The notes: a model not told the origin generated them from the sequence alone. DNA of 64,000 nucleotides from an uncultured Clostridia bacterium (GCA_944386715.1 CALXCD010000001.1:74408-138407), one strand, 5' to 3'; counted from the first letter of the stretch, positions 1 to 34,262 are shown. Numbers and translations are program-made.

Positions 1-3000
1 ATCCATTTCCCTTTCTCTCTTCTCCAGAATTTAGAGCTTCTTCTGTTTTTCCTTGTGCTTGTTGTTCTTGTGTATATACTGCCTTATCTTCAAAAACTGT
101 TCCGCTTACTAATCTTTCTTCTTGCAACATTAAGTTAAGCCCTGGTGCTCTATCTGTATCATCTTCAAAAGTTCTTAAATTATTAATATCTACACTATCT
201 GGTCTTGAATCCACATCTACACCTGCAATTGGTTTTCCATTCTCTAAAGTAGTATAAGATGTAATCTCTGCAACACTATTTAATGTAACTTCATTAGAAG
301 TATTTCTAATTAACATTTCTTCCATTGTACTTGTTTTTACTTTAGCCACAACATAAACATATTGCCTTGTTTGAGCCGTTATTTGTGTTCCTTGATTTAA
401 TTTAACAACTGCTACTCCATTTTGAACATCTATACTGTCTATTTTATTTTCACTATATGTTCTTGACAAGTCTATTTCATTAGAAGTTATTTCATATCCA
501 TCATCAAAATAGAATTTAAATTCATTTACTATTCCCGCTAAAGTTGTCGCTTGATTCTCTAATCCTATTTTATAAACTGCCTTTACTTCTAAACTATCAG
601 ATGGATGTGCAATATCAGAAGGGAACAATGTTCTTGTATAAGACATGTTAGCATAATCCCCTGTGAACTTTTCTGTCATATTATCTGAAACTTGATTTAA
701 TATAGCCTCTGTTCTCTCTCCATACTTAAAAGTATGAGATGTTCCATTAAATGATACTTCTACTCTGTCTATATCCTCTGTTAAAGCCAAATCTGGTTGT
801 TCTCTTTCCTTAATACCTAAATTAATATTATAAATATAATCATTAGCAGGATTATAGAATTTATCAGATGATAAATCACAAATACCTTCTGTTGATGCTC
901 TTAAATTATATTTTGGTTGTGCATAATCATCATTTGGACGATAAATAATTTCACTCTTGTAATCGGAAACACTATAATCTACTCCAGATGTATCACTTGC
1001 ATTTGTTTCTTGAGATTTGTCAATAGTATTATATCGGTCATCTAAATCATCCCTCATCTCTTGTATATCAGATGCTTTAGAACCTTTCTCTTCATCTACC
1101 ATAGTTGGAATAGAATAATATTTCATTCCGTTATATTCAAATTCTACTGTATATTGGTCTAAATCTTTTACTTTCAATTTTTTGAACTCATAATGTCCTG
1201 CCGAATCTGTAGTAGTAGAATCGACTTCTGCTCCACCTTTTTTCAACACTACTTTTATTCCTGGTACTAATCTTTCTGTTCCTGAATCATATAAATTATT
1301 TGTTACATGTTGTTTTCCTTGTCCTTCTTCTTGCCATACCAATCCCTCTAAGTCTATTGCTATTCTCGTATCTGTAAATGTATTTACACTACCTGGAATT
1401 AATGTTACAACAGATGGATTATCAATATCAAAATAATCTTTTTTATCTTCTGGTAAAGCAATCTCTTGTGCATAGTATGTTAAATCAGTTGGCAAATTAG
1501 GAAATGTTATTTGTCCATTAGCATCTGTTGTATATTCTCCATCAAGCCATGCACTTGTTTCTACATATAAGTCATATAATCTTTTCTTTTCTTCCCATTC
1601 TTCATGGTCTTTTGCATATTGTGATGCACCTGTATAGACTCTATCATATGAATGTGGTCTTTCCCATTTTTCTGGAAGAGGATTTCCTTCAGCATCTGTT
1701 TTACCTTCATTTACATTTATCAATGCATGTGTACAAGCTCTATTTGTCCAATATTTACTATCTGAAGTTTTTGGCTCTCTTCCTGGATTCTCTTCTGGTT
1801 TTACCCAAACTTTGAATCTTACTCCTTCCATTCGCACATCAGTATCTTTAATATATTTTATGATTCCATAATCTTCCTCTTCTGATGGTTTTGGATTATC
1901 TGGTTCTTCTGGTTTTTCTGGTTCTTCTGGTTCTTCTTTTGGCTCATTTTCAAACGAAACTGATGCTGTTTTTCCAGCTATCAAGTTTACTTTTTGAGGA
2001 TTAGTTTTAGACAACTCATATCCTGATGGTGCTTGTACTTCTTTCACATAATAAACTCCTGGTTCCAATGTAGTAATAATCAGTTTCCCACCTGCTCCCG
2101 TTGTACCTGATGCGACCATATCTGTACATGCTAAGTCTTTATATATTTCAAATTTAGCCCCTGGTAAAGTTACTTTTTTTCCAGTATTAGCTTCATATTT
2201 TATAATTTCTAAAACTGGTTTTACTGGTGGAATAGTAAACGCAAAAGATTTACTATAAGGACTATCACCAAAATAAGTATTGTAAATACCTATATTTTGA
2301 TTTGTTCCTGTGTTTTTCAAAAAAGCTATTTGGGCACATATAGCATTTTTTCTTACTATATTAACTGTAACCGTTACTTTGTTCCCCCAATTAGATGGTA
2401 TCTTTAAGTAAAAGGTTTCCCCTGATTTTAAATCTACTGTATTTTTCTTAATAGAACCATCACTATTATAAACATATATATAAGATAAAGAATTATCTCC
2501 AGCTTCTACTGTTATTTTTCCAGATGAATTGATTGTTCCTTTAGAAAAAGTAAATTTAAAAGGTCCAACAACATTATATGCTGTTCCGTTAGTTACTAAA
2601 CCTGCTTTCGAAACATCTAAATCTGTTGTTGCATTTGAAATTGTTAATTGTCCCAAATTAGTTGCATAAGTTTTTGCTCTATTTAACAAATCTGTATTTT
2701 CTTCTCTACCATAACTTTCTGGACCGATAATATTATTTAAATTAAATGTAGAACCAAATCTACCTTTCCAAGCTGCAAGTTCTGCCCATAAAGAATAAAC
2801 AAATTTATCATACCCATGGAATCCAGAATAAGTTCTATGTCCATTCATAAGATAATACGCTAACCTACCATTATAGCCACTGTATAATGGATCATCAACC
2901 GTCTGTGTTCTATTTCTCGCATCTAAATAAGTTCCTGTAACATAATTTCCAGCAATAGTTACAATTGCTCTTACTTTATAATTTCCACCGCCATTAAGAG

Positions 3001-3184
3001 TTTGCTCAGAATTAGTACATATTAAATTTCTATTAGGTGAAAAGTCATTAATATACAGAGTTTGTCCTAATCTGTATGAATTTATATTAGATGTATAATC
3101 ATCAGCAAAAGATTTTGTTTGCAAAACTAATATAGCTACTATAAATATAATACCTAATAATAAATATTTATATATCTTTTTCAC
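1..3184 (-). CDS. Giant secreted surface protein, module B copy 2 (paralog of 8287..12201). GTG start; the 3' end runs off the window.
   Basis: Absent from the ORF track because there is no stop in the window. Hand translation from GTG 3184..3182, 5 nt after a GGAGGGG RBS, gives VKKIYKYLLLGIIFIVAILVLQTKSFA (signal peptide). This is followed by a SpaA/Cna-B-like segment (LEIIKYEANTGKKVTLPGAKFEIYKD..LEPGVYYVKEVQAPSGYEL), a P/E linker and an SdrD-B-type segment (GLVWQEEGQGK..GIKVVLKKGGAEVDSTTTDSAGHYEFKKL). It is colinear with the 8287..12201 product (DLALTEDIDRVEVSFNGTSHTFKYGERT versus DLAVMKDVENAKVTVNGYEHTYLYAQRF). Confidence 0.8.
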   Translation of the reverse strand, partial: MKKIYKYLLLGIIFIVAILVLQTKSFADDYTSNINSYRLGQTLYINDFSPNRNLICTNSEQTLNGGGNYKVRAIVTIAGNYVTGTYLDARNRTQTVDDPLYSGYNGRLAYYLMNGHRTYSGFHGYDKFVYSLWAELAAWKGRFGSTFNLNNIIGPESYGREENTDLLNRAKTYATNLGQLTISNATTDLDVSKAGLVTNGTAYNVVGPFKFTFSKGTINSSGKITVEAGDNSLSYIYVYNSDGSIKKNTVDLKSGETFYLKIPSNWGNKVTVTVNIVRKNAICAQIAFLKNTGTNQNIGIYNTYFGDSPYSKSFAFTIPPVKPVLEIIKYEANTGKKVTLPGAKFEIYKDLACTDMVASGTTGAGGKLIITTLEPGVYYVKEVQAPSGYELSKTNPQKVNLIAGKTASVSFENEPKEEPEEPEKPEEPDNPKPSEEEDYGIIKYIKDTDVRMEGVRFKVWVKPEENPGREPKTSDSKYWTNRACTHALINVNEGKTDAEGNPLPEKWERPHSYDRVYTGASQYAKDHEEWEEKKRLYDLYVETSAWLDGEYTTDANGQITFPNLPTDLTYYAQEIALPEDKKDYFDIDNPSVVTLIPGSVNTFTDTRIAIDLEGLVWQEEGQGKQHVTNNLYDSGTERLVPGIKVVLKKGGAEVDSTTTDSAGHYEFKKLKVKDLDQYTVEFEYNGMKYYSIPTMVDEEKGSKASDIQEMRDDLDDRYNTIDKSQETNASDTSGVDYSVSDYKSEIIYRPNDDYAQPKYNLRASTEGICDLSSDKFYNPANDYIYNINLGIKEREQPDLALTEDIDRVEVSFNGTSHTFKYGERTEAILNQVSDNMTEKFTGDYANMSYTRTLFPSDIAHPSDSLEVKAVYKIGLENQATTLAGIVNEFKFYFDDGYEITSNEIDLSRTYSENKIDSIDVQNGVAVVKLNQGTQITAQTRQYVYVVAKVKTSTMEEMLIRNTSNEVTLNSVAEITSYTTLENGKPIAGVDVDSRPDSVDINNLRTFEDDTDRAPGLNLMLQEERLVSGTVFEDKAVYTQEQQAQGKTEEALNSGEERKGNG
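1901..1936 (-). repeat. In-frame 9-nt tandem repeat x4 (tggttcttc, with variant tggtttttc) encoding an EEP/EKP linker
   Basis: Direct reading: tggttcttc tggtttttc tggttcttc tggttcttc. On the minus strand this is GAA GAA CCA repeated. Confidence 0.8.
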
Positions 3185-3203
3185 TATTTCCCCTCCTTCC
3201 ATT

Positions 3204-6200
3204 TTAAATTAATACCTTTTTAATAATAAAATATATACCTATGATAAAAATACAAGCTATAAAAATACTTAATCCAATATATAAATAAATACTTCCTGTT
3301 TTAATACCAATAACTAAATTTGCTTGATCTTTATTATCCTGTTGTTCTCCCACTTCTCCTAATCCAGTTTCATTACAAGCTTCTAGTAATTCTGCCTTAT
3401 TGACTATAGTACCTGTTGATTCTTCTGTCATAGTTCGAGTTAAAACCAAAGAAATTACTTTTTCCTCTCCTGGATTTATTTTTTGGTTTGCAAAACCTTC
3501 ATAATATAATTGGTTGCTTATCAAATACCAATCTGGATTTAAAGTAGAACTAAAATTCAATCCTTTTGGTAATTCGTCTACTATATTTTTTGCATAACCA
3601 GCTACTTCTCCAACATTTTTCACTTTAATCTGATATTCAACAACTAGATTTGCTCCTTCCATTTGTTTAGAATCCAATTCTATTTTTGCAAAATCAGTAT
3701 TTTGGTATTGATAAGTTTCTATCCCCTTATCGTATTGCACAATAACTTTTTGAATACTTTTATCTAAGGACATGTTGAATATCTCTAATTTAATCAATCC
3801 CATATCAATATCATTAATATCACTATTTTCAACATTAATAATTTCAGTAACAGCATATATTTTTCTTTGTCCTTTAATTTCTAATTCTTTAGCAATTACA
3901 TCTGAATTTTCGGTTTCCTCAACATCTTCTGCACGATATGGCGACAATTCGTATTTTGTTGTGTCATATTCGAATATTGGCATATATCTTCCACTATGTA
4001 CACCATAAAATTCATAAAGTCCCTGATTATTTGTAATTGTAATTCTTTCATTTCCGTCTTCATCTTTAACAATTTTACCAGTATTCACATCTAATAATAA
4101 AACTCTAATACCTTCTAGAAGTGGTTCTTCACTAGTTCTTTTACCATTTTTATCAATATCTTCCCATACAGTTCCTCTAATAGAGTAAATTTTATTTCCA
4201 GCCTCATCTTCCTTATCATACTGATGTTCTACTTGTGCAGTTGCTCTTTCTGCTCCATTCACAAGTAATATAGCTTTATTAATAACACTTGAAATTTCCT
4301 CTTCTCCTTTATCCTTAACTCTAACACCAATAGTATATATCATTTTTTCTTTTGTATTTAAAGTAATTTCTTCTTCTATTTCATTTGGTATTGGTTGTAT
4401 TTCCTCTTCGTTTTCTATACGTTCTTGTACAATTTCTCCATTTTTCTTGATATACATTATATCTAATATTTCTGGAACTTGATCAAGTAAAATCATTGTT
4501 GTTTCTGATGAAGAATTATTTTGAATTTCTATCGTATATTCAAACATATCATCTTCTTTTATAATTTCAGACTGACTATTAGAAATCATATTCATTGACA
4601 CATCAAATCTTTGAACTTCTGTCATATATATATTAGATCTACACCAATCTTGATTTTGTGTTTTTGCTAATGTCACTACACCTATTTGATTATTAGCTGT
4701 TTCTATTTTGTTAATCTTTAATATTATTTCTAAAACTACTACTCCATTTTCTTTTATATCACCAATTGAAATATCACCTTCTAGTTGTTCTAGCCATTTC
4801 TCATCAACTGGTTCATTATTTTCATATTGTTTCACAATTAGACTTTCAATTTCAGTTCCTTCTGGAATAACTGGTCTTACCATTACATTTTCTTGTTTCT
4901 GATTTGTCATGTTTTCTATAATAACATAATAATTAATGGTACTTCCTTCTGCGATATTAACACCTCTATCTAATACTCTTTTTAAGCTTACTCTTAAATC
5001 AGTCTTTTCTAGTTTGTTTTGCCATTCGTTAGACATAATGGTGTTATCTTCCCATTGTACTTGGGCAATATTTTTAATACTATCAGTTTGTATTTCTTGT
5101 TTTACCCTAACTTCAAATTCTTTTACAAAGACCTCTCCAACGCCAATTTTATCAATTGGATAAGTAATTTGTCTTTCTTGCCTTTCCAAATAATATTTAG
5201 CCCCTGTATATTCATATCCTATTTCACCTTCATCTGGTTCTACCCAAACAACATCTTCAGGAAGTATCATTTGAGCACTTAAATTTTTTAATTCTGTTTG
5301 ACTTGTATTTCTTACTTCTAAACGATAATGAATAACTTCTCCTGTTTTTACAGTATCTCCTTCTTTTAATTCCTCCCCACCTACAGTAGCACTCAAATCA
5401 ACTTGCAAACTTGCTTTTTCTTGTTCTTCTGTTGTCAACAATAATGAGGTAGAATTAACTGTTTCTGTTTCTGTATCATCACCTTCATGATACAAAACTT
5501 TATATTGTTGATAAGCAACCATTTTACTTTCTAAATCTTCTGGTAATGTAATTTGATAAGAAGCTAGTATTTTCTGATCCTTTTGAATTTTATCTATTTT
5601 TATTAAATAATTTTTTACTTCATTTCCATTTTCTATAGATTCTCTCCATTGGTTATTTTCATCTGTAATATCCTGTGTTACATTTTCTTGTGTACTATAA
5701 TATATTTTTATTTGACTTTCATCCACTCCTTGTAATTGTAAAGGAGACATAACTTGTATTGGCATTGTGTTTTCTTTTTTTCCTTGCTCTACTATTCCTT
5801 GTGTAGGAAATCTTCCTAAAATACTAACATTACTTACTTCGTTATTTTTATGATTAATGACAGCTATATCTACTGATGTTTGCTCGATAGCTGTTTCTGA
5901 TTTTAAAGTTATTTCTTGTTCTTGTTGTATTCCATTAGATTCTAATCCTAATTCTTTCATATTATTTAATGCTAATATATTTTCCAAAGTGCATATTTGA
6001 ATAGGTAATATCTCTTGCACTTCTTCTTGATTAGAATTTGTTAATTTAGTAATAATTTGTCTTTCTACATTTCCTATTTCTGTTGAAATTTTTATATCAG
6101 CAGCAATAGAAATATTAGCATTTTGAAGTTCTTCTCGATGATAACTTTGTTCTCCTTCTAACTGTATTTGCAATTTCTTTCCATTTTCTGTGTTTAACAT

Positions 6201-7952
6201 TCCTGCTGACACTATTTTCAATTCTTCTTCATTTAATAAATGAATGGATTTTACATTAATTTCTTCAATCTCGGTCGGAAATTGAATTTCAATTTTAGGA
6301 TTTTTGAACAATTTTTGTTCAGCACTATTAGTTAATAATATCACTCGTATTTCAATATTTTCATTTAATTCCAAAGCAGTTAATTCTTTTTTATTTATTT
6401 GTGTTGAAATTGTTTCCTTTGCTTGTGCAATTTCTAGAATATTTTCCTCTACATATTTATCATAGTTTTGTATTCTTTGTATAAGAGCATCTGCTTGTTG
6501 TATAGCAACATTTCCTTTATCTTCTTGTAATCTTTTAATATGCCTTAATTCTAATTTTCCTCTTTGCTCAGGATTCTCTATTTGTATTGTAATTTCTTTT
6601 ATATTTTCTGGATATGTAATAATCACTTCTCCATTTTCCGCAATAGATTGTTTTGTAACTTCTGAAACCAATTGTTGATCTTGATCTAATATACGTAAAA
6701 TACCTTTTTCTCCTAATACAAAATCTAACTCTTGTTTTGTTATTTTAGTTTGCAAATATACAGAATTTGCATTTTCTTCTTTTTCTCCTATTCGATATTT
6801 ATCCTGTTCTTCTAGAAATTCAAAACTATGCAATATTTGTGTATCATTTAAATTAATAATACTATTTCTCTGAAAATCTTTTTGCTCACCTGCTAGTAAT
6901 CCACCATTATATATTTGTGTTTCTGTATTTTGTATTTTATAAGTAGAAAGTCCTTCTTTTTCTTCTTCCAAAGAAAATTGCAAATTCTTTTCTAGATTAG
7001 TCGCATCATAAAGTTCTAATTGTGCATTCACATCTAAAACATCTGATTTTATTTCCACTTTTTCTTGATATTGAATATGCAATAAAATTTGGTCTAATTT
7101 ATTTTGCCATAGAACATTTCCTTCTGATTCTTCATTAAATAAATTAACTTCTAAAATACCTGTTTCTTTCTCATATCCATAATTATTTTCTGTAATAGGT
7201 AAATTAGTATCTATTCCTATCACTTCTATTTTTTCTACTTTTTCCTTACATGGAATCTGTACTTTAATATCCGTACTTTTTATTGCATAATCTTGCTCCA
7301 TTAAACCTGTATATAAAGACATCTGTAAAACAGATTTTTCTATCTCGTCAAAGAAATAAGTCTTATTGGTAATAACCTCACCTTCTAATACAGCACTTTT
7401 ATTTTTGCTGTTCCATTTAACATTTACATTAACAGAACCAGCCACTTCAATATTATCCTGCACATCCCCTTGATAAATTCCTTCTATTTTAACTTGAATC
7501 TGGGCATTGAAAAAAGAAAGTGGTATCTGTGTTTTCCTTTGTAAAGCAATTTCAACTGGTATCTCTATTGTCTCTCCAGCTCTAATCTGTTTTAATTTAA
7601 TTTTATTTCCTTCTATTTTTTCCACTTTATCACTTAATATAGTATTTTTTAAATCCACATTGCTATTTTCTAGTGAAAGAGAACCTTCAAAATATCCTTC
7701 TTTTTTCACTTCTACTTTTATATATAATTTTTCTATTTGGTCTAAATACAAATCTTTTTGTGCACTATATTTTCCTTCTTCTGTTTTAAAATAAGCTGAT
7801 AGTTCTACATTTTTGCAATTTGTAGTAGTAGATTGAACTGTTTCTTCACTAATAGCTTCTACAATATTCTTTCCAATAAAAATAAAATTCCCCAAAATCA
7901 TGGTTTGGATTATTAAAATAATAAGAATTAGTTTTTCTAACTTTCTTTTCAT
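3204..7952 (-). CDS. Giant surface protein, module A copy 2 (DUF11-type repeats plus an SdrD-B-type domain, C-terminal IKTG-helix-KK tail)
   Basis: ORF track, 1582 aa. N-terminal signal-anchor LILIILIIQTMILGNFIFIG. DUF11-like repeats (GEVIHYRLEVRNTSQTELKNLSAQMILPEDV; INYYVIIENMTNQKQENVMVRPVIPEGT; MFEYTIEIQNNSSSETTMILLDQVPE; LVVEYQIKVKNVGEVAGYAKNIVDELPKGL). SdrD-B-like GTVWEDIDKNGKRTSEEPLLEGIRVLLLD..NNQGLYEFYGV. RBS aaaGGAGaactggg before the ATG. Colinear with 12222..17159. Confidence 0.85.
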   Translation of the reverse strand: MKRKLEKLILIILIIQTMILGNFIFIGKNIVEAISEETVQSTTTNCKNVELSAYFKTEEGKYSAQKDLYLDQIEKLYIKVEVKKEGYFEGSLSLENSNVDLKNTILSDKVEKIEGNKIKLKQIRAGETIEIPVEIALQRKTQIPLSFFNAQIQVKIEGIYQGDVQDNIEVAGSVNVNVKWNSKNKSAVLEGEVITNKTYFFDEIEKSVLQMSLYTGLMEQDYAIKSTDIKVQIPCKEKVEKIEVIGIDTNLPITENNYGYEKETGILEVNLFNEESEGNVLWQNKLDQILLHIQYQEKVEIKSDVLDVNAQLELYDATNLEKNLQFSLEEEKEGLSTYKIQNTETQIYNGGLLAGEQKDFQRNSIINLNDTQILHSFEFLEEQDKYRIGEKEENANSVYLQTKITKQELDFVLGEKGILRILDQDQQLVSEVTKQSIAENGEVIITYPENIKEITIQIENPEQRGKLELRHIKRLQEDKGNVAIQQADALIQRIQNYDKYVEENILEIAQAKETISTQINKKELTALELNENIEIRVILLTNSAEQKLFKNPKIEIQFPTEIEEINVKSIHLLNEEELKIVSAGMLNTENGKKLQIQLEGEQSYHREELQNANISIAADIKISTEIGNVERQIITKLTNSNQEEVQEILPIQICTLENILALNNMKELGLESNGIQQEQEITLKSETAIEQTSVDIAVINHKNNEVSNVSILGRFPTQGIVEQGKKENTMPIQVMSPLQLQGVDESQIKIYYSTQENVTQDITDENNQWRESIENGNEVKNYLIKIDKIQKDQKILASYQITLPEDLESKMVAYQQYKVLYHEGDDTETETVNSTSLLLTTEEQEKASLQVDLSATVGGEELKEGDTVKTGEVIHYRLEVRNTSQTELKNLSAQMILPEDVVWVEPDEGEIGYEYTGAKYYLERQERQITYPIDKIGVGEVFVKEFEVRVKQEIQTDSIKNIAQVQWEDNTIMSNEWQNKLEKTDLRVSLKRVLDRGVNIAEGSTINYYVIIENMTNQKQENVMVRPVIPEGTEIESLIVKQYENNEPVDEKWLEQLEGDISIGDIKENGVVVLEIILKINKIETANNQIGVVTLAKTQNQDWCRSNIYMTEVQRFDVSMNMISNSQSEIIKEDDMFEYTIEIQNNSSSETTMILLDQVPEILDIMYIKKNGEIVQERIENEEEIQPIPNEIEEEITLNTKEKMIYTIGVRVKDKGEEEISSVINKAILLVNGAERATAQVEHQYDKEDEAGNKIYSIRGTVWEDIDKNGKRTSEEPLLEGIRVLLLDVNTGKIVKDEDGNERITITNNQGLYEFYGVHSGRYMPIFEYDTTKYELSPYRAEDVEETENSDVIAKELEIKGQRKIYAVTEIINVENSDINDIDMGLIKLEIFNMSLDKSIQKVIVQYDKGIETYQYQNTDFAKIELDSKQMEGANLVVEYQIKVKNVGEVAGYAKNIVDELPKGLNFSSTLNPDWYLISNQLYYEGFANQKINPGEEKVISLVLTRTMTEESTGTIVNKAELLEACNETGLGEVGEQQDNKDQANLVIGIKTGSIYLYIGLSIFIACIFIIGIYFIIKKVLI

Positions 7953-7988
7953 CCCAGTTCTCCTTTTTCGACATTATTTCTATCTTAA

Positions 7989-7997
7989 ATTATAGCA
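7989..7997 (-). promoter_or_regulatory. Candidate extended -10 promoter (TGcTATAAT) for the 3204..7952 / 1..3184 operon
   Basis: The minus strand reads ggTGcTATAATttaag about 35 nt upstream of the ATG. The -35 is poor (T-run). Confidence 0.3.
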
Positions 7998-8235
7998 CCA
8001 TTATTTTGTAGAAAAAACATGTACTTTCTTTAATAAAGTAAATATTACAAAAATTATTGTCATCTATCGTTACGGATTTGACTTTTGAAAATCTTTATAT
8101 TTCTTTTATTAAATTTATTTTAAAAATTTGTAACAAACTAGCAAAAATTCTTTTCTTTCCACTTAAAGACAATAAAAATAGTTTTTTAAATAACAGCAAA
8201 TATTGATTTCCCTAGTTTTTCTTTCAATATAATAT

Positions 8236-8271
8236 CAAAAAAAGCACTTCTAGAATTTCTTCTAAAAATGC
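8236..8271 (-). terminator. Rho-independent terminator after 8287..12201
   Basis: The minus-strand RNA reads gcauuuuuagaa-aaa-uucuagaagugc followed by a U7 run. It starts 16 nt after the stop codon. Confidence 0.6.
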
Positions 8272-8286
8272 TTTTCTTTTTTGGTA

Positions 8287-11200
8287 TTATTTATTTAAAA
8301 CTTTTTTCTTAATTAGCCATACACCTGCACCAAGAATAACTAATGTACTTAATCCAATAGAAATTGGTAATACATAATTTTGATTTTCACCTGTAGGAGG
8401 TGTTACTGTCACTGGCTCTGCTGGATCTTCTGGTGGATTTAATTCAGGTCCATAGAATTCTGGAACTTCGAATGTATAAATAGTAGATAATTTTGTAACA
8501 ACAGCTAAGTTATTGAATTCTATTTCATCTGCATTTGCCAATTGTCTAGAACCTTTTATTTCCACACTAGCTTGTTCTGTTGGTGCTAATGATTTTTCAC
8601 TTAAAGCTTGTGTTACAAATGCATTTCTTCCCTCTACTGTGGTATCCTCTGTATCCATTTGCCAAACACCATCTTGATTATCTATAAATACTAATGTTTC
8701 ATCTAAATAATCCCTTAATTCGCCTATTCTTAATTTTACTAATTCACCAATATTATCCCCTGCTTGCTCTTGACCATAGAAGTAATAATCACCATTTTCA
8801 GAAACATAATCACATTCACTAATATTGGTAGCTACAATTTCATATCCTATCTCGATTTGAGATTGTTGAAGAATTTCACTATCTATTTCTGCTTTCACAA
8901 ATCCTAGTTGTGGTCCTCCTGTTACACTATCTACTTGTCCTTCTAATTTTCCTTCTTCATTAATAATTGCATCTATCAAAACATTTCCATTAGCTAATGT
9001 AATTTTTATTGTTTTTACATGTTTATCTAATGCTAATTCTTGTCTTGGTCTTTCTACAATCCCAAAATCTACATTACTTACTCTATATAAGAAAGAATCT
9101 TTTCTAATGACATATCCATTTTCGTCTTTCTTAACATTACCATTTTCATCAAGTTCATATTCTATACTATTATCTGTAATAGTACTTTCAAATTCGATAC
9201 CAAATCTCATCATCGGTGTCGTAGAATCCATTTTTGTAATTAATGTTTCACCTTCTGCTACTCCTGATGCTGTTTGTTTGTCAATTGCATTTCTTAGTTC
9301 CCAATCATCCATTGCATCTGAATACCTTGGTGTTTCTGTTTTATACCATTCTGGATTATTAGCTCTTTCTTTTTCCTTATAGATAGTTCCTTTATAATTT
9401 TGGATAGTATAAGTGTCATCTCCCCATGTATAAGTCAAAACATATTCATCTGGTACATAACCTCTGATTGCAAAATCACCATTTTCATCTGTTTCAATAT
9501 CTTTTGCTTCTACCCATTGTTTTGTTGTTTCATCATAAATTTGGGCAACTTCACCAGAAGTATTCTTTAATGTAAGTTTTACTCCACTAATTCCTTTTTC
9601 TCCTTCTTTGTATTCTCCATCACCTTCTCTTACTTGTGCTGTTAATAAATCTGGACTTGTTTCATCTAAGAAAACTTTTCCTGTCAATTCTCTTGCATTT
9701 GTTAATTCTAATTTCATAGATGGTGCAGAATCTGTATCATCTTCATAAGTGGTTTTATCTCCTGGAATTGCGTTTCCTGGGTTAGAATCTAAATCGATTC
9801 CTGCATAGATATTTCCATCTCTATCAAAACTTGTATAAGAATTCATTTCTACCACATTATCCAAAGTTTCTTGGTCATTCATAACAGCAAGTACAGCATC
9901 TCTATTTAATTCAAATTGAATATAAATATCTTGCACCTTTTGTGCTTCTATTGTTTGTGTACTATAAATAGTTACTTTTTTATAATCATTGTTATAATTT
10001 TCTGGTTGTGAATATTGTAATTCTCCTGTAATATTTCCTTTATCATCTATACCATTTCCCACTTTTGTAATGTTATATCTTGCATCAAAGTAATCTACTA
10101 TACTATTAGCTCTTCCTGATAAATTAGTAGATTGATTTCCTATTCTAATATGATATGTAATATATACTTTTAATTCTTTACTTGCATCTTGTGGTTTATA
10201 TTCTACATCTGATTTATAAATAGCTCTTGTATATGTCATTGTACCATATTTATTTCCGAATTTAACACCTACATTAAATCCATCCTCATATTCACCTTGA
10301 TTTTGAAATCTTTGTGCATACAAATAAGTATGTTCATAACCATTTACAGTCACCTTTGCATTTTCCACGTCTTTCATGACTGCTAAATCTGGTTTTTCTC
10401 TTTCATAAATACCTAAATTGATATTTTTGATTTCTTCTTCTTTTCCTGTATATTGTTTTGACAAATCATATCCTGCATTCGCAGTTGTCGCTATCATTAA
10501 ATATTTTTCAGGTTCTTTTATAAAAGTAGATGTATAAGCAGATGTATCTTTTACATAATTCAAATCATATGTTTTATTTCCTGATGCATCTAAAGCAACT
10601 CCTGTTGTTTCTCCCGTTCCCTGAATTTCTGCAAATTTATCATTAAATGCTTTTCTTTCTGCATCTGATTCATCCGCTTTTGAACCATTATCTTTGTCTA
10701 GGTGAGGTGTTACTGGTTGATAAGTTAAACCATCATATTCAAATTCCACATAATAATCTGACAAATGTTCAATTAATACGTCTGTAAATAAGTAAGCACC
10801 CTGACTATCTGTTTTCGTTTCTTGTATTATTTTTCCTGATTTATCTTTTAACCTTACAGTAACTCCTGCTACTAATTTATCTTGTGTATCTCCTGTTCCA
10901 TTTTGATATAAATCATTTCTATATGCTTGTTTTCCATCAACAATATCTTCCCATACATAACCTGAAAGTTTTATCAATACTCTTTTATTTGTAATTTTGA
11001 ATTCTTCTGTCTTATCTGCCGTAACATCATGAGATACTCCAGCTGTTATAATCTCATATCCATAATTTGGATTCTTTGTTTCATAAGCAGTATAAGTTCC
11101 TACTAATAAGTTTTCTATCAATATTTCCCCATTTTTATCGGTTACAAATTCCGTTGCCTGTGTTCTATCATCTACATAAGATATTGTTTTGTCTGCATTT

Positions 11201-12201
11201 TGTTTTACATATTTACCATTATCTTTATATTGAATATAAAAACCTACTCCTTCTAATTTTGTTTCTTGGTTATTTTCATCTACTTTTATAACTTTTAAAT
11301 TACCTTGTAACAAAATATCATATGGTAAATCTGTATCTACATTTTTCTTGCTCGTACTTGGTTCTACAATCATTAAATTTTGGTTTGCCGCATTTTTAGC
11401 ATCTAAGAACCACATATCAACAGATTTAACTTCTGATGTTACAGAGGCAGAAATTTTAGTAATTTTACTTACCCCTCTATTAGATGGAAATGCAATATAA
11501 AATCCTTTATTAGAAGTTATTTTTTCTATTCCTCCCCATTGTAGCTCTTTTCCTCTATAAGAACCTATTTTCAAATTACCAATTGCTTTTCCATCTTGGT
11601 CATATACAGAAAGTTTACTCAAATCTCCTTCATAATCCCATTTAAAAGGTCCCACTTGAAGGTAATTTGTATTCCCTTCTGTAAAAGTTGCAATTCTAAT
11701 TTTACTTTTATCTGTTTTATCTGTAATCTGTAGATTTTGATTTTTAATAGAGTTTGCATAATCTGTAGATTCTTGGTCTAGTGGAGTAGGAGCACCTGTA
11801 GTATTTGAAGCAAATCCTGCATATAATCCAGCATGTTGTTTTCCTACTTTTTGCATCCAAGTATAACCAAAATTCCAAATGGCATTTTTCTTATCTTCTT
11901 TACTTGCATTACTAGCAAGAATTCCTGCCATTTTAGCATTATACCAACTATCTATAGTTTTACCTGTATGGTCTTTTGATTCTGTACCATTAATTTTTAC
12001 ATTAGAAATAATTTTATAATAAACTGTATCTATCAAATTTTGTCCATGCTCTAAACAAAATATATTATTACTTGCTTCATATTGCCAATAGCTAACCCCT
12101 ATTTCTTGCCCTACTTGATATCCTTTTGAAACTGTACTGAATCCTAAGATAGAAGCAACTGCTATTAATAAAATACATAAATATCTTTTTATTTTTACCA
12201 T
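8287..12201 (-). CDS. Giant secreted surface protein, module B copy 1 (SpaA/Cna-B-like plus two SdrD-B-type domains, C-terminal TPPTG-helix-KKK tail)
   Basis: ORF track, 1304 aa, with a signal peptide. LKVIKVDENNQETKLEGVGFYIQ..LLVGTYTAYETKNPNYGYE; GYVWEDIVDGKQ..GVTVRLKDKSGK..TDSQGAYLFTDV; GKVFLDE..GISGVKLTLKN..TDENGDFAIRGYVPDEYVLTY. The start lies 20 nt downstream of the stop of 12222..17159. Confidence 0.85.
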   Translation of the reverse strand: MVKIKRYLCILLIAVASILGFSTVSKGYQVGQEIGVSYWQYEASNNIFCLEHGQNLIDTVYYKIISNVKINGTESKDHTGKTIDSWYNAKMAGILASNASKEDKKNAIWNFGYTWMQKVGKQHAGLYAGFASNTTGAPTPLDQESTDYANSIKNQNLQITDKTDKSKIRIATFTEGNTNYLQVGPFKWDYEGDLSKLSVYDQDGKAIGNLKIGSYRGKELQWGGIEKITSNKGFYIAFPSNRGVSKITKISASVTSEVKSVDMWFLDAKNAANQNLMIVEPSTSKKNVDTDLPYDILLQGNLKVIKVDENNQETKLEGVGFYIQYKDNGKYVKQNADKTISYVDDRTQATEFVTDKNGEILIENLLVGTYTAYETKNPNYGYEIITAGVSHDVTADKTEEFKITNKRVLIKLSGYVWEDIVDGKQAYRNDLYQNGTGDTQDKLVAGVTVRLKDKSGKIIQETKTDSQGAYLFTDVLIEHLSDYYVEFEYDGLTYQPVTPHLDKDNGSKADESDAERKAFNDKFAEIQGTGETTGVALDASGNKTYDLNYVKDTSAYTSTFIKEPEKYLMIATTANAGYDLSKQYTGKEEEIKNINLGIYEREKPDLAVMKDVENAKVTVNGYEHTYLYAQRFQNQGEYEDGFNVGVKFGNKYGTMTYTRAIYKSDVEYKPQDASKELKVYITYHIRIGNQSTNLSGRANSIVDYFDARYNITKVGNGIDDKGNITGELQYSQPENYNNDYKKVTIYSTQTIEAQKVQDIYIQFELNRDAVLAVMNDQETLDNVVEMNSYTSFDRDGNIYAGIDLDSNPGNAIPGDKTTYEDDTDSAPSMKLELTNARELTGKVFLDETSPDLLTAQVREGDGEYKEGEKGISGVKLTLKNTSGEVAQIYDETTKQWVEAKDIETDENGDFAIRGYVPDEYVLTYTWGDDTYTIQNYKGTIYKEKERANNPEWYKTETPRYSDAMDDWELRNAIDKQTASGVAEGETLITKMDSTTPMMRFGIEFESTITDNSIEYELDENGNVKKDENGYVIRKDSFLYRVSNVDFGIVERPRQELALDKHVKTIKITLANGNVLIDAIINEEGKLEGQVDSVTGGPQLGFVKAEIDSEILQQSQIEIGYEIVATNISECDYVSENGDYYFYGQEQAGDNIGELVKLRIGELRDYLDETLVFIDNQDGVWQMDTEDTTVEGRNAFVTQALSEKSLAPTEQASVEIKGSRQLANADEIEFNNLAVVTKLSTIYTFEVPEFYGPELNPPEDPAEPVTVTPPTGENQNYVLPISIGLSTLVILGAGVWLIKKKVLNK

Positions 12202-12221
12202 CTTTTTTCTCCCTCCTTTCT

Positions 12222-15200
12222 CTATGAAATTTTATCTATTTTTCTCTTATTTTGTACTGCCTTCATTTTCTTGTTTTGCAAAACTATAATAGTTACACCT
12301 AAAGCTACAATTGCAAATCCGATTAATGAAGAATATAAAATAATTTCACCTGTTTTAATACTAATAATAACATCTGCTACTCCCATATCGTTTTCCCCTT
12401 GTGATTTATTAGCTGGTGTAGAATTACTATCTGCTAAACCTAATTCATTATAACAATCTGCAATCTCAGCTGTGTTATTAACAAGACCTACATTATTTTC
12501 TGTCATTGTTTTTGTCAAGGTTAATGTAATTGTTTTAGTTTCTCCTGCTTCTATTTTTGTATTTGCAAGACTAGTATTATATAATGTATTTCCCCCTGAT
12601 GTGTACCAATCTTTGTTCAACTCTGAGCTAAAGTTCAAATCATTTGGTATATAATCTGCTATACTCTTAACATATCCTGGAACTTCCCCTATATTAGAAA
12701 CTTTAATTTGATATTCTATGATAACTGTAGTTCCCTTTAAAGCTTTTCCATCTAATTCTACTTTTGCCATTGTTTCCTCTTGATATTCTTTTACAGTAGT
12801 TCCTTGACTATTTTGAATCATAATCTTAGAAACATATTTATCTAATTTCAAGTCAAAATTTCGCAATGGAATAAATCCTACATTAATATTAGCAACATTT
12901 CTATTTTGTATTTCTATCATATCAGTAGAAGCAACTTGTTGCTCTGTTCCATCTACTGTTAAAGTATTCATCATAACTTTAGAATTATTAGTATCATTGC
13001 TTCCTTCTACTTGATATTTTGTTAAAGCATATTTAGTAGTATCATACTCGAAAATAGCAACATATTTACCATTTCCTATATGATTTAAAGTATAAATTCC
13101 TTTCTCATCACTACTTGCTTGTAACACATTTCCTTCACTATCTTTCACAAATTGATTTGTTTCTACATTTAACAGTTTAACAATAATACCACTTAGTAAA
13201 GTTTCATTATCTTCTTTTAAACCATTATTATTTTCATCATACCAAGCTACACCACTGATAATGCAATTTCCTGTTGCTGTATTATTATCTGGTATATCGT
13301 TATCATTATTATTATTCTCTCCTGTAACAGGTTCTATGATATGAGTTAATTCTGATGTTTTTGCTATTGTTTCCCCATAGACCATAGCTTCTGCATAATT
13401 GGTAATAGAAACTGGTTCTTCTTGTGTTTCCACATAATCTACTACTGTTTCTATTTGAATAATACTTTCTTGAGAAGGTTCTACTGTAATATCTAGTTGC
13501 ATTTCATGAGAATCTGGTAACTCCAATTCTTCTCCATCTTTCACTATTTTTACAATAGATAACTCTTCTGGTATATTATCAGAAATAACCAATCCTTGTG
13601 TCTTTACTGGAGAATTGTTTTTCACTTTAATGGTATATTCTAAACTATCTCCTGCTTTTATATAAGTATCTGCCATATTAGAAGTCATTTCTAATCCAAT
13701 ATCAAAATGATTAATCTCATCTATCCATTCATTAGAACGATATTGTTTCTCATCTTGAATGACAATTACGGAAAATGGAAGTTTGTTATTAGCTGTATTA
13801 TCTTTCTGAATTGAGATATCATAACTCAATACTTTCACTTCTCCTGGTTGCAAAGTACCAATTGAAACAGAATCACTATAAGTTAATGTCTCTGTTTGAA
13901 TATTTTCTTCTTGTGTTCCATTTTGTAATAACATGTCTTCTGTTATTTCAATTCCCGTTTCAGAATTTGCTGTTTCAACAGCAGAATGTAATTGGTCATC
14001 TGAAACATCTTTATCTTCCATTCCTGTCATTAAAAGTAATCTTTCTACTGTTACTCCTTCTGGTAACTTTGTTTGTACTTGTACATTTTCTATTGGTTGA
14101 TTAGATGTATTTTCAATAATTGCAAAATATTGTACAACTCCTCCTGCATAAAGCAATGTACTTCTATCCGTAACTCTTTTAACACTTGCTCTTATATTAC
14201 CAGATTGTGTACTATATTGCAAAGTATTTGTTTTTTTAGTAACTTCTCCTACTGTAACTTGAGCTTCTTCTTTTATTTGTGTTCCATCTTCAATGTCTTT
14301 ATTAACCCTTACTTCAAATTCTTTACTTACTTTTTCTCCAGGTTGAATACTTTCTATAGTAGTTTCATAAACTTTTTTATCCGTTTCTTGGTAATAAGAA
14401 GCACCTGTATATTCGTAATTTTCTTTTGGCTCCACATAAGTAGTTCCTTCTGGTATATTAGCTGTTATTTTAGCATCTTTTACCTCTTCTGAACCAGTAT
14501 TAGATACTTCTACTTGATATTTAATAACTTCTCCAGCCATAACTTTTGCATCATTTTGTATCATTTCAGAACCAACCTTACCTGCTAAAACCGCTTCTAC
14601 TCTAGGACCTACTCCTGTTGTCATTTCTATCTGTGTAGAAATCACTTTATTTTGTGTCATTGTCTGACTGTCTGTATAAGATACTTCATACCATTGTTTT
14701 GCACTTTGATTATATTCTAAATTTGCTGGTATCTGTGTTGTATAAGTAGCACTCATTCTTGCTTGTGGTTCCATTTTTTCTATGATAATTAAATATCTCT
14801 TTACCTTAGCTCCATCTGCTATTGTTTGTGACCAACCATTTTCAGCATTGTCTAAATCTATTGTTGCTTTTTCATTTTCGGTATAATAAACAGTAGCATT
14901 TTCTATACCTTGTAATTGGATACCATTTATAATGCTAGTTCCTATGGTATTTCCTGTACTAACTGTTGGAAATACTCCTAATATACTTACATCATGAATT
15001 TCTACTGGTTTGTTATTAACAATTTCTATATAAGAAGTAAATTGTGTTCCATCTGTTCCTATTGGCAATGAAACTACTTTATTTTCTTCTTGTCCAATTG
15101 TTTCTACCCCTAATTCTGGGATTTGATAAATTGCTGTAATTTCTGTAGGAGCCTCTATTTTAATAGGAGTAACTATATTTTCAATCGCCTGACTAGCCTT

Positions 15201-17159
15201 TTGATTTGTATAACTCATTCGTATTTGTGCATCTTTTGTAGCAGCCTTTTGATTTAAAGTAACATTTGCATAAATAAATATATTAGCTCCTTCTACTGTT
15301 TCTTCTTTATAATTTGTCTGCTCTCCCTCTAATTCTACAATAATATTTTTACCTTCAACACGATATGTTTTTATTTTTAATTCTTCTTCATACAACATTT
15401 CTACTTTGGTTAAATTTATTGTTTCAACATCTTCTGGTAAAGCAATTGTAATAATTGGATTTTGATATAAATCATAGGCTTCACTATTTGTTTTCAATAC
15501 TACCTTCATTTCTAAATCATTTGCAACAGCTGTAGCCAAACTTGTTTTATTCATCTGTAAAGTAGCTTCTGTTTTAGGTTCCTTTAGTTCTACCATTGCA
15601 ACATTTAGGTTTTCTTTTTCTATTTTCTTATCTGCAACTAAATTATCTGTTACATATCCTATGGTAGTTAAATAAGACATTTGTTTTAAGTCTAAATTAG
15701 TATTATTTTTTAATACTTTATGATGTGTTAATTCTAATTTTCCAGTATCTACAGGTGTTGTTGTTCTTAGCACAACTCCTTCTAGTCCCTCTTTATAGTC
15801 TAAAACAATATTTCCCTGTTCGTTTGCTGGAGTATTTTTATCAATTGTTGCGATAGTCTCTCCATTTTTATTAAGCACTGTAACAGTTCCATTCTCTCCT
15901 AAGATTTTCATCCATTGTTCTTTATTGAAAACAGTAGATAAATATAATACATTAGCAGATGTTAAATTGTCTAAATTTTGGTTCGTTGTACTAAAACTAT
16001 TTTCGTCTTTCACTTCTAAATATTCTTGTGCATTTGCTAAATCCACATAAACTGTAGTATCTGTTTCAAACTCTCTATCTAATCCTTGATATAATTTACC
16101 TTTATACATTTGAGTTTCTCTATTTTGTACTTTTGTAGTAATCATATTATTTAACTCTACAGAAGCATCTAATGTAGCTTTTCCATCTACTGTAATTTCC
16201 TGTCCATCATAGAAATGAATTGTTGCATTTGCTGTAATTTCTTGATTTTCTATGGTAGTACATGCTTTTGCTATATAAGTAAAAATAATTTCTTCATTTC
16301 CTTGATTCTTCCAAATAATTTTTCCGTCTTGTGCTATATTAGTCATTTCCATTGTTGTTACAGTTCCTTCTGCATTAGATTTAGTATTAGACTTCCAACT
16401 TGTCATCATATTCATATGAGCCGTTTGTGACACTTCTGGAACAGAACCATCTTTAACAACAGGTGCTTTATTCTCTAATTTTATAGATTGAATAGGATTA
16501 CTATTATCTTTTAATCCTAATTTGAAAGCTACCTGTACTACTCTTCTTTCCTCTCCATTAATAGTCATTGTTTTATTTGTAATTACTTCCATATGGTTGA
16601 CTATATTTTCTTCTTCTAAATTAGCAGAAGGATAAGAAAGTTTAACAGTTCTATCTGCTACTACAGAAATATCCTTTTCTGAACTATCTTTATAAATACC
16701 TTTTAATTGTATGATACTTTCTTTTTCTAAAAGATTAACATCAAATATCTCTTCTTTTATCAGTTCTACCTTTATCTCAATTTCCGCAGTAGAACCTGCA
16801 TTGATTTGATTTAATGTAATGGTATTTCCTTCTATTTTATTAACAAATGGACTATTACCTACTATTTCCTTTAGCTTAAAATTAGCTTCTCCTAAGTTTA
16901 TTTGTCCATTAAAATATCCTTCCTGCTTAACAGCCACTTCTAACACCAAATTTGTCTCCGTGTTAGAGGGTTGTAATTGTGTTACTTTTTGTCCATTAGC
17001 ATCTTTAAAATAAGCACCAAATTCAATATTTTTAACATTGGTACTAATATCATCTATTGCATAACTAATGAATGTTTTTCCAACATAAATGAAATTCACC
17101 ATTGTCATTGTTGTGATTAATAATAAAATAATACTTATTTTCAAAATTCTACTCTTCAT
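12222..17159 (-). CDS. Giant surface protein, module A copy 1 (DUF11-type repeats plus an SdrD-B-type domain, C-terminal IKTG-helix-basic tail)
   Basis: ORF track, 1645 aa. Signal-anchor ILKISIILLLITTMTMVNFIYVG. DUF11-like repeats (GEVIKYQVEVSNTGSEEVKDAKITANIPEGT; VVQYFAIIENTSNQPIENVQVQTKLPEGV; SLEYTIKVKNNSPVKTQGLVISDNIPE; VIIEYQIKVSNIGEVPGYVKSIADYIPNDL). SdrD-B-like GVAWYDENNNGLKEDNETLLSGIIVKLLN..SDEKGIYTLNHIGNGKYVAIFEYD. RBS AAGGAGGAAAC. Confidence 0.85.
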   Translation of the reverse strand: MKSRILKISIILLLITTMTMVNFIYVGKTFISYAIDDISTNVKNIEFGAYFKDANGQKVTQLQPSNTETNLVLEVAVKQEGYFNGQINLGEANFKLKEIVGNSPFVNKIEGNTITLNQINAGSTAEIEIKVELIKEEIFDVNLLEKESIIQLKGIYKDSSEKDISVVADRTVKLSYPSANLEEENIVNHMEVITNKTMTINGEERRVVQVAFKLGLKDNSNPIQSIKLENKAPVVKDGSVPEVSQTAHMNMMTSWKSNTKSNAEGTVTTMEMTNIAQDGKIIWKNQGNEEIIFTYIAKACTTIENQEITANATIHFYDGQEITVDGKATLDASVELNNMITTKVQNRETQMYKGKLYQGLDREFETDTTVYVDLANAQEYLEVKDENSFSTTNQNLDNLTSANVLYLSTVFNKEQWMKILGENGTVTVLNKNGETIATIDKNTPANEQGNIVLDYKEGLEGVVLRTTTPVDTGKLELTHHKVLKNNTNLDLKQMSYLTTIGYVTDNLVADKKIEKENLNVAMVELKEPKTEATLQMNKTSLATAVANDLEMKVVLKTNSEAYDLYQNPIITIALPEDVETINLTKVEMLYEEELKIKTYRVEGKNIIVELEGEQTNYKEETVEGANIFIYANVTLNQKAATKDAQIRMSYTNQKASQAIENIVTPIKIEAPTEITAIYQIPELGVETIGQEENKVVSLPIGTDGTQFTSYIEIVNNKPVEIHDVSILGVFPTVSTGNTIGTSIINGIQLQGIENATVYYTENEKATIDLDNAENGWSQTIADGAKVKRYLIIIEKMEPQARMSATYTTQIPANLEYNQSAKQWYEVSYTDSQTMTQNKVISTQIEMTTGVGPRVEAVLAGKVGSEMIQNDAKVMAGEVIKYQVEVSNTGSEEVKDAKITANIPEGTTYVEPKENYEYTGASYYQETDKKVYETTIESIQPGEKVSKEFEVRVNKDIEDGTQIKEEAQVTVGEVTKKTNTLQYSTQSGNIRASVKRVTDRSTLLYAGGVVQYFAIIENTSNQPIENVQVQTKLPEGVTVERLLLMTGMEDKDVSDDQLHSAVETANSETGIEITEDMLLQNGTQEENIQTETLTYSDSVSIGTLQPGEVKVLSYDISIQKDNTANNKLPFSVIVIQDEKQYRSNEWIDEINHFDIGLEMTSNMADTYIKAGDSLEYTIKVKNNSPVKTQGLVISDNIPEELSIVKIVKDGEELELPDSHEMQLDITVEPSQESIIQIETVVDYVETQEEPVSITNYAEAMVYGETIAKTSELTHIIEPVTGENNNNDNDIPDNNTATGNCIISGVAWYDENNNGLKEDNETLLSGIIVKLLNVETNQFVKDSEGNVLQASSDEKGIYTLNHIGNGKYVAIFEYDTTKYALTKYQVEGSNDTNNSKVMMNTLTVDGTEQQVASTDMIEIQNRNVANINVGFIPLRNFDLKLDKYVSKIMIQNSQGTTVKEYQEETMAKVELDGKALKGTTVIIEYQIKVSNIGEVPGYVKSIADYIPNDLNFSSELNKDWYTSGGNTLYNTSLANTKIEAGETKTITLTLTKTMTENNVGLVNNTAEIADCYNELGLADSNSTPANKSQGENDMGVADVIISIKTGEIILYSSLIGFAIVALGVTIIVLQNKKMKAVQNKRKIDKIS

Positions 17160-17193
17160 AGTTTCCTCCTTATCTCACACTAATCTAATTTAT

Positions 17194-17222
17194 ATTATAC
17201 CTCTTTTTTCCACTTTTTTCAA
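17194..17222 (-). promoter_or_regulatory. Near-consensus sigma-A-type promoter for the 12222..17159 / 8287..12201 operon
   Basis: Minus strand: TTGAAA, 17-nt spacer, TATAAT (caTTGAAAaaagtggaaaaaagaggTATAATataaat). The -10 lies about 35 nt upstream of the ATG. Confidence 0.5.
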
Positions 17223-22410: not shown

Positions 22411-24189
<1,779 letters not shown>

Positions 24190-34171: not shown

Positions 34172-34262
34172 AAAATTTTCCTCCTATTATTTTCTTCTTC
34201 CATTTTTATTTATTACCTAAAAAAACAAACTTTTACTTTTAAAATTTTTTATAGATACCTTA

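Follow-up and report, generated by a model that had tools for sequence, protein, structure and literature searches.

A predicted thioester adhesin and a giant stalk protein are encoded as a fixed gene pair, in a core and a variable slot, across a clade of uncultured gut Clostridia

Why does an uncultured, low-GC gut Clostridium give over about 19 kb to giant surface proteins, and why are their genes arranged as two adjacent, co-oriented pairs? The DNA that raises this question is a 64,000-nucleotide (nt) stretch (GCA_944386715.1 CALXCD010000001.1:74408-138407; about 29% GC throughout), which we call the window. Each pair consists of an A gene followed by a B gene, and all coordinates given for them are on the minus strand: A1 (12222..17159; 1645 amino acids [aa]) and B1 (8287..12201; 1304 aa) occupy slot 1, and A2 (3204..7952; 1582 aa) and B2 (1..3184; the first 1061 of 1560 aa, the open reading frame [ORF] being cut by the window edge) occupy slot 2. 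An earlier note on this DNA had described the four ORFs, their short spacers, a promoter, and a terminator, all of which are present on this strand, and had proposed a tandemly duplicated adhesin or fiber system whose A and B components function together. We consider it probable (roughly 0.62) that B is a TIE-type adhesin, that A is a stalk protein made along with it, that the two form a fixed pair, and that slot 1 is the core version of this pair and slot 2 a variant one.

To survey the pairing, we scanned one genome per species with a B alignment as the query. The 79 loci returned all came from uncultured gut Clostridia, among them Clostridium sp. CAG:343 and UMGS1711, sampled from humans, mice, chickens, and rabbits. 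A lies directly upstream of B, in the same orientation, in every species locus with enough upstream DNA (77/77), within a fixed order of PBP2, MinC, two small divergent genes, A, B, a variable slot, SpoIIE, and a WG-repeat protein. B-type genes also come next to distant A homologs (26 to 38% identity), on their downstream side. Of the B relatives that we looked up, the two remotest (E about 1e-6 to 1e-7) have A-like genes of 1,588 and 1,700 aa upstream, the spoIIE locus being again the site of one of them. Among the loci examined, down to the edge of B detectability, neither A nor B was seen on its own. This is very strong evidence that A and B form a unit, a fixed 1:1 pair. As regards linkage, the proposal that A and B work together has thus held up (77/77 loci, with in-frame fusions in 24 species, described below); direct physical contact between the two proteins is a further step, which we infer. 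In the literature searched, we found no thioester adhesin described as paired with a DUF11 protein.

The N-terminal domain of B gives the clearest indication of function. B1 and B2 are 34% identical over 517 aa (E 4e-58) and 24% identical over this domain. We modeled aa 27 to 300 of B1 (11302..12123) by AlphaFold2 (AF2) with an alignment of 42 relatives. In the resulting model, whose predicted local distance difference test score (pLDDT) is 92.9, strands at the N-terminus lead into a bundle of three helices and a beta-sandwich, and a long hairpin bearing Gln274 at its tip closes the domain. Foldseek returned only three significant matches in the PDB, all to class II thioester domains: 6FWY (E. 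faecium TIE86; E 1.7e-6, probability 1.0) and two chains of 6FWV (B. anthracis TIE), with probabilities of 0.99 to 1.00 across the set. The order of secondary-structure elements fits class II (head lobe, inserted beta-sandwich, hairpin), at a template modeling score (TM-score) of only 0.27 to 0.30.

Thioester domains carry a cysteine motif of the form [YFL]-C-hydrophobic-hydrophilic and a weak glutamine motif, hydrophobic-Q-hydrophilic-hydrophobic-hydrophobic (PMC6194298). Among 87 B N-domains from both slots, the candidate thioester cysteine is kept in all 86 that align there, position 48 is F, Y, or L in 84/87, and position 51 is E or Q in 82/87. B1 fits the motif (F48-C49-L50-E51), and B2 fits more weakly (ICTN). 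Gln274 is kept in 85/87 domains in the context [YLFM]-Q-N-[LM]-[ILM], with B1 reading NQNLM. The codons for the two residues lie at 12055..12057 (Cys49) and 11380..11382 (Gln274) in B1 and at 3017..3019 (Cys) and 2297..2299 (Gln) in the thioester domain of B2 (about 2198..3103). In class II domains, the glutamine follows the cysteine by some 170 to 205 aa. The two are 225 aa apart in B1; the spacing is 204 aa in EfmTIE86 and 171 aa in another class II reference (PMC6194298), and 188 aa in TIE-pLS20 (PMC8092201). Based on the model and the motifs, we infer that Cys49 and Gln274 could form a thioester able to bond covalently to an amine on a target. The conserved cysteine, taken together with His123, could also be read as pointing to a cysteine protease or a transglutaminase; this reading was dropped because the fold matches only thioester domains and His123 is present in 69/87 sequences. 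An exhaustive HMMER search of 1.84 billion representative proteins found 165 relatives of the domain, which therefore defines a narrow subfamily; nearly all full-length relatives (1,200 to 1,900 aa) carry it N-terminally, as B does.

The remainder of B resembles the stalk and anchor of a wall-attached surface protein. In B1, the thioester-type domain is followed by a SpaA domain (CnaB-type, prealbumin-like; 10984..11304; PF17802, E 2.9e-10) that matches the PDB sequence 4OQ1 (E 2.7e-6), by a first SdrD_B domain (10654..10917; PF17210, E 5.5e-14), and by a second SdrD_B-like module (about 9397..9690) recognized by reading the sequence and colinear with B2. The SpaA domain of B2 matches PF17802 more strongly (E 1.5e-23), and Pfam also calls CarboxypepD_reg beside SdrD_B in B. 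B1 ends in a predicted cell wall sorting signal (8287..8403) made up of TPPTG(E), a hydrophobic span, and KKKVLNK. Full-length B2, seen in metagenome contigs with an identical A2, ends in LPPTGE, a hydrophobic span, and a K-rich basic tail, and the family consensus is x-x-P-T-G; with these tails, both B proteins would be sortase-type substrates. Because it combines the thioester fold and motifs with a SpaA/SdrD_B stalk and a sorting signal, B is best described as a divergent, putatively sortase-anchored TIE-type adhesin with a class II-like thioester domain. Pfam and NCBIfam bore out the domains that the earlier note had named, SdrD_B in both proteins, DUF11 in A, and SpaA in B; the TPPTG and LPPTG sorting signals of B had been overlooked. 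By fold and motifs, the N-terminus of B belongs with a known family of single-gene adhesins, the TIE proteins; that of A is an array of immunoglobulin-like (Ig-like) domains with no recognizable adhesive head. As a side observation, one distant B-type protein (P0313, at 8001..13052 of locus L092) carries three dockerin type I repeats in its stalk, between SpaA and its C-terminus. The A-B-SpoIIE locus is kept there, and a RepA_N/TnpV element and a peptidase upstream replace PBP2-MinC.

A is a different kind of protein. A1 and A2 match along their whole length with 32% identity (E = 0), in line with the colinearity described in the earlier note, and the single A gene of a relative shares 45% identity with A1 from end to end. 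The N-terminal signal of A1, read from the sequence (aa 1 to 34; 17058..17159), ends in SYA, and an (S/T)YA motif is kept at this point in homologs. Because this conserved motif is typical of signal-peptidase cleavage, the N-terminus is more likely a cleaved signal peptide than the signal-anchor first proposed. The region that follows (aa 36 to 860; 14580..17054) has no Pfam match, and AF2 modeled its ∼820 aa as an all-beta chain of Ig-like sandwiches (pLDDT 89.6). The best Foldseek matches were the Ig-like domains of PrgB (8BEG; E 4e-17), integrin alpha legs, and alpha-2-macroglobulin MG domains, which are generic likenesses at TM-scores of about 0.17 to 0.20 and 9 to 10% identity; a sequence search found no homology between this region and PrgB. 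No adhesive head was recognizable in these ∼820 aa from the AF2 model and Foldseek.

CLIPPER/DUF11 (CnaA-like) repeats occupy about aa 865 to 1250 of A1 (13410..14567), where PF01345 matches in three stretches, and are followed by an SdrD_B domain (aa 1304 to 1413; 12921..13250; PF17210, 31.9 bits against a cutoff of 29.7). PF01345 scores 45.4 bits in A1 and 51.8 bits in A2 (curated cutoff, 24.6), and TIGR01451 scores 73.8 bits (E 8e-21) and 44.2 bits, respectively (cutoff, 24); the TIGR01451 repeat C-terminal to SdrD_B is the last, CLIPPER-like domain. Among full-length Sdr family (MSCRAMM) models, which span the N2-N3 ligand-binding region and the B repeats, only the SdrD_B repeat matches, with NF000535 (SdrC) giving A2 19 bits against a cutoff of 1700. 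CLIPPER/DUF11 is an isopeptide-bonded stalk domain of fibrillar adhesins (bioRxiv 10.1101/2025.04.25.650565 / PMC12617251). A is an all-beta stalk, built of an Ig-like array, CLIPPER/DUF11 repeats, and SdrD_B. It ends in SIKTG, a hydrophobic span, and basic residues in A1 (12222..12362) and in GIKTG and a transmembrane (TM) segment in A2 (3204..3308), and the pattern [IV][SG][VIL]xTG, TM segment, and K/R tail is kept in all inspected A homologs and fused ORFs. This tail may be either a plain stop-transfer anchor or a variant sortase signal. The idea that C. difficile SrtB accepts NVQTG, which would have favored a sortase signal in A, was discarded, as the source paper reports the opposite: in vitro, the enzyme did not cleave NVQTG (of CbpA).

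How the pair is multiplied differs among species at slot 2. This slot is empty in 4 species and in one further relative. It holds a separate second A in 37 species, in 32 of which the next B is also in view, and one in-frame ORF of 2,200 to 3,190 aa in 24; a few species have a third A gene after it. The fused loci include L019, L020, L022, L023, L029, L032, L034, L038, L040, L055-L058, L066, L085, and L087, with the fused ORF at about 14.2 to 23.6 kb in locus coordinates. In the middle of such an ORF, the A xTG, TM segment, and basic tail are followed by the B signal peptide. We had entertained the idea that fused ORFs lack the B N-domain, A having replaced it, and ruled it out since the A tail, the B signal peptide, and a diverged N-domain are all present. 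This order makes sense topologically and, with the B signal peptide kept, signal peptidase would still separate the halves. Fusion is therefore evidence for obligatory co-production and not for a single mature chain.

The two slots have had different histories. Slot-1 orthologs score a median of 0.89 (A) and 1.13 (B) bits per residue, and slot-2 genes about 0.3 bits per residue, whether compared with one another or with slot 1. The best match of a slot-2 copy is a slot-2 copy in another genome for 30 of 32 A and 27 of 29 B proteins, and only one slot-2 B copy best matches the slot-1 copy of its own genome; therefore, the duplication predates the clade. The tandem duplication that the earlier note had read from this DNA is not private to the genome: by these comparisons, the two-slot architecture is ancient and common to the clade, with an orthologous slot 1 and a hypervariable slot 2.

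Comparison with close relatives points to exchange. The nearest species (L010) is identical to the window at 94% in PBP2, 80.5% in A1, and 85% in B1, but at about 33% in A2 and at 65% in B2, whose N-domain is replaced. The window A2 has its closest counterpart in the slot-2 A of a different species (L053) and not in the A2 of this nearest one. In contig L095, the DNA that starts at PBP2 and runs on through A1 is 100% identical to that of the window as far as about 500 nt into B1; identity then falls to 85 to 92% and, over A2 and the 5' portion of B2, to 36 to 60%. The reciprocal pattern is seen in L003 and L004, with 74 to 84% identity over the small 149-aa gene upstream, A1, and the first ∼130 aa of B1 and 96 to 100% over the rest. 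Two independent breakpoints fall inside the B1 thioester domain, at about aa 130 to 170. Judging from these identity profiles, the strains are recombination mosaics, and slot 2 is horizontally exchanged.

Under the reading we favor, A and B would be produced from one transcript, A being encoded 19 to 20 nt upstream of B, and both would be exported, B via Sec. A sortase encoded elsewhere would cut the xPPTG of B between T and G and join B to peptidoglycan, where the SpaA and SdrD_B/CnaA-like stalk would hold out the N-terminal class II-like thioester domain. The Cys49-Gln274 thioester would then react with a target amine to leave a permanent amide bond; amide formation with a target has been shown for SfbI and is implied for class II domains (PMC6194298, PMC8092201). 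A, at about 1,600 aa, would form a long stalk beside B, tethered at or near the membrane by [VI]xTG, a TM segment, and a basic tail. The pair would act as one surface module, with slot 1 as the conserved core pair and slot 2 as a fast-diversifying, horizontally exchanged variant pair supplying variation. The slot-2 pattern is consistent with selection by ligands, host antibody, or phages on those parts that are exposed at the surface.

Several observations weigh against this account. The Foldseek TM-scores of B1 against thioester domains are low, as given above, and neither phmmer nor a profile search of PDB sequences found a thioester domain for B. B1 and B2 match neither Pfam PF08341 (TED) nor NCBIfam TIGR03934 (TQXA domain); PF08341 was reached by only 2 of 16 family members, at E about 0.02; in favor of the assignment, it is the sole family matched by more than one member of the B N-domain family. 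The TQxxFW motif is half kept (Trp in 81/87, Gln in 40/87, and KKNAIW in B1). The TQxx-hydrophobic-W residues, in helix alpha-2, are reported not to be essential for bond formation (PMC6194298). The [VI]xTG tail of A is not a validated sortase signal, with the similar NVQTG left uncleaved by C. difficile SrtB. In a motif test only, no ORF with the sortase motif TLxTC was found in the 64-kb window or in 96 related loci (±10 kb, 2.0 Mb in total), which agrees with the earlier note that no sortase lies nearby; the only motif matches were spurious antisense ORFs inside B. Wall anchoring of B would thus rely on an unseen enzyme. Fused ORFs, by retaining the signal peptide, would still yield two proteins, and adjacency and fusion would also be expected for two adhesins that merely need to be coexpressed.

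In SpaA-type pili, tip and base pilins are joined by sortase, and A and B could form a minimal two-subunit fiber of this sort, in which A would be cleaved at its [VI]xTG and joined to a lysine of B or to the wall, with B as the base and A as the distal shaft. Both proteins end in xTG followed by hydrophobic and basic stretches, the TG is invariant in the A homologs seen, the gene order is fixed at a 1:1 stoichiometry, and weak homology links the C-terminal modules of the two proteins (E 2e-4). We nevertheless regard such a fiber as unlikely. Pilus loci carry a class C sortase, whereas the scan described above recovered none; the YPK(N) pilin motif is missing from A1, A2, B1, and B2; the A signal lacks the proline that the B signal keeps; and the failure of C. 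difficile SrtB to cleave NVQTG counts against processing of A. In addition, the distal adhesive domain lies on B and not on A, a poor fit with B as the base. With no sortase, no YPKN motif, and no small pilin in the locus, the fiber system raised in the earlier note finds no support in the pilus sense. It is also quite unlikely that A and B are two unrelated adhesins that are neighbors by descent and act independently in a frozen gene order. The whole neighborhood (mreCD, PBP2, minC, spoIIE) is syntenic in a clade whose gene order is generally conserved, and TIE proteins act alone in other bacteria (PMC6194298, PMC8092201). Against this, wherever the module is present more than once, A and B strictly alternate, up to a third module, and the 19- to 20-nt spacing is kept in both window pairs. 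Nor would mere descent readily explain in-frame fusion in 24 species, the exchange of slot-2 alleles as A plus the 5' part of B, or the fact that a B-type thioester protein without an A gene was never seen, even at the edge of detectability.

A more intimate relationship, in which the B thioester captures a lysine of A on the same or a neighboring cell, would yield a self-assembling covalent heterodimer or a strain-specific lock and key, with the slot-2 cassette setting recognition. Throughout the detectable family, A and B are obligate neighbors; in two independent strain mosaics, A1 moves together with the head lobe of the thioester domain that follows it; the slot-2 exchange unit is A plus the thioester-bearing 5' part of B; and the class II thioester adhesin TIE-pLS20 acts in bacterium-to-bacterium contact (PMC8092201). 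However, A and the 5' end of B are contiguous, so linkage alone explains their joint transfer; characterized thioester domains bind external targets, such as host fibrinogen in the case of SfbI (PMC6194298); and A has no distinctive domain marking a ligand role. We hold capture of A to be decidedly improbable. A role in the envelope or in sporulation, as a sheath, spore appendage, or cell-chain connector, appears very improbable. The position between PBP2/minC and the spoIIE/WG-repeat genes is kept in every locus, and the proteins occupy >1% of a roughly 1.6-Mb genome, as might suit a structural component. The putative promoter, though, is sigma-70-like and not a recognizable sporulation promoter, the domain content is that of fibrillar adhesins, and hypervariability with allele exchange is typical of exposed adhesins and antigens, not of structural scaffolds.

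The spacers between A and B are 20 nt (A1-B1) and 19 nt (A2-B2) long and contain strong Shine-Dalgarno sequences, AAAGGAGGGAG ahead of the B1 ATG and GGAAGGAGGGG ahead of the B2 GTG at 3184. Upstream of A1, a sigma-70-type promoter-like site (17194..17222, minus strand; TTGAAA-17-TATAAT) matches the consensus at 11 of 12 positions; it is a consensus match only, the region as a whole not being enriched over shuffles. An intrinsic-terminator-like hairpin lies 3' of B1 (8237..8278, minus strand; 1 found versus 0.0 expected from shuffles). In metagenome contigs with an identical A2, B2 runs ∼1.5 kb past the left edge and is followed by spoIIE and then a WG-repeat gene. The cluster, which the earlier note had suspected of extending leftward, does so for the rest of B2 and, since these two genes adjoin B2, ends there. 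The WG-repeat gene encodes a ∼509-aa WG-containing beta-repeat protein (PF14903, E 8e-35) and is always found just 3' of spoIIE (22092..23621 in L001 and 16947..18470 in L007).

On the other side of the A1 promoter, two small plus-strand genes diverge from A1, one of 149 aa (17423..17872) and an overlapping one of 114 aa with a hydrophobic C-terminus (17865..18209). They flank the A1 promoter in nearly all 79 loci by synteny, match no Pfam or NCBIfam family, and vary between strains along with A1 (74% identity versus 100% for A2). Farther into the window, several minus-strand genes look shortened or split. MinC is 136 aa (18468..18878) compared to about 205 to 240 aa in relatives, and it is called with the same split, 136 plus 63 aa, in L095; MreB starts late, at a TTG (22411..23337); and a PcrA/UvrD-like helicase occupies two overlapping ORFs of 524 and 262 aa (28040..30359). 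These may reflect either real pseudogenization or assembly errors. GC content dips to 19% at 34001..36000, compared to about 29% elsewhere, and this dip overlaps a 648-aa minus-strand ORF (34263..36209).

To our knowledge, thioester adhesins are the only bacterial adhesins that bind their targets covalently, and we know of none studied so far that did not come from a pathogen or a plasmid and act alone. If B is a TIE-type adhesin paired with the stalk protein A, as we favor, then the kinds of protein involved are already known, TIE adhesins in the case of B and CLIPPER-stalk fibrillar proteins in the case of A. What is new is that the two-gene module is obligate, that it is organized in slots with in-frame fusions, and that it belongs to the core of an uncultured gut clade. 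The locus thus adds a divergent thioester family that current Pfam and NCBIfam models miss, and that, in a widespread clade of gut Clostridia, would be both a core trait and a very costly one. It offers a concrete candidate for gut attachment of these uncultured commensals, a natural test of dedicated bacterial partners for thioester domains, a recombination-shaped locus for strain typing, and seed sequences with which to extend the family models. Should the B thioester prove to capture A, no thioester adhesin before B would have had a bacterial partner that is genetically encoded and dedicated to it.

Among known systems, SpaA-type pili with a thioester tip adhesin, such as S. pyogenes Cpa, resemble the A-B locus in having several surface genes per operon, one of them with a thioester domain, as well as SpaA-fold domains and TG-containing C-terminal signals. 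The A-B locus differs in having no pilus sortase, YPKN motif, or small major pilin and in the size of its subunits (1,300 to 1,650 aa). Enterococcal PrgB (8BEG), like the N-terminal region of A, is a Gram-positive surface protein with a string of Ig-like domains; this likeness is generic, as integrin legs and macroglobulin domains score almost as well. CLIPPER/DUF11 fibrillar adhesins (PMC12617251) share with A the tandem CLIPPER/DUF11 and SdrD_B domains between a signal peptide and a C-terminal anchor. In A, however, there is no recognizable head, the first 820 aa being further Ig-like sandwiches; the anchor is [VI]xTG plus a TM segment instead of a canonical LPXTG or an OmpA-like domain; and, unlike other members of this group, A occurs only alongside B.

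For B, the comparison is with the class II TIE proteins (BaTIE 6FWV, EfmTIE86 6FWY, SaTIE, and TIE-pLS20). Like B, they begin with a Sec signal and an N-terminal thioester-type domain, and continue with CnaB-type stalk domains and an LPXTG-like sorting signal. As modeled, the B domain likewise appears to combine a head lobe, an inserted beta-sandwich, and a long hairpin, and it has Cys and Gln in both bond-forming motifs. In contrast to these proteins, the domain of B goes undetected by Pfam TED, by TIGR03934, and in PDB profile searches, its TQxxFW motif is degenerate, and its sorting motif has a proline adjoining the threonine (x-x-P-T-G). A giant partner gene always lies ahead of B, an arrangement not described for known TIE proteins. 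Finally, B is, at 1,300 to 1,560 aa, two to three times larger than TIE-pLS20 (778 aa), and its stalk, unlike theirs, includes SdrD_B and CnaA-like modules.

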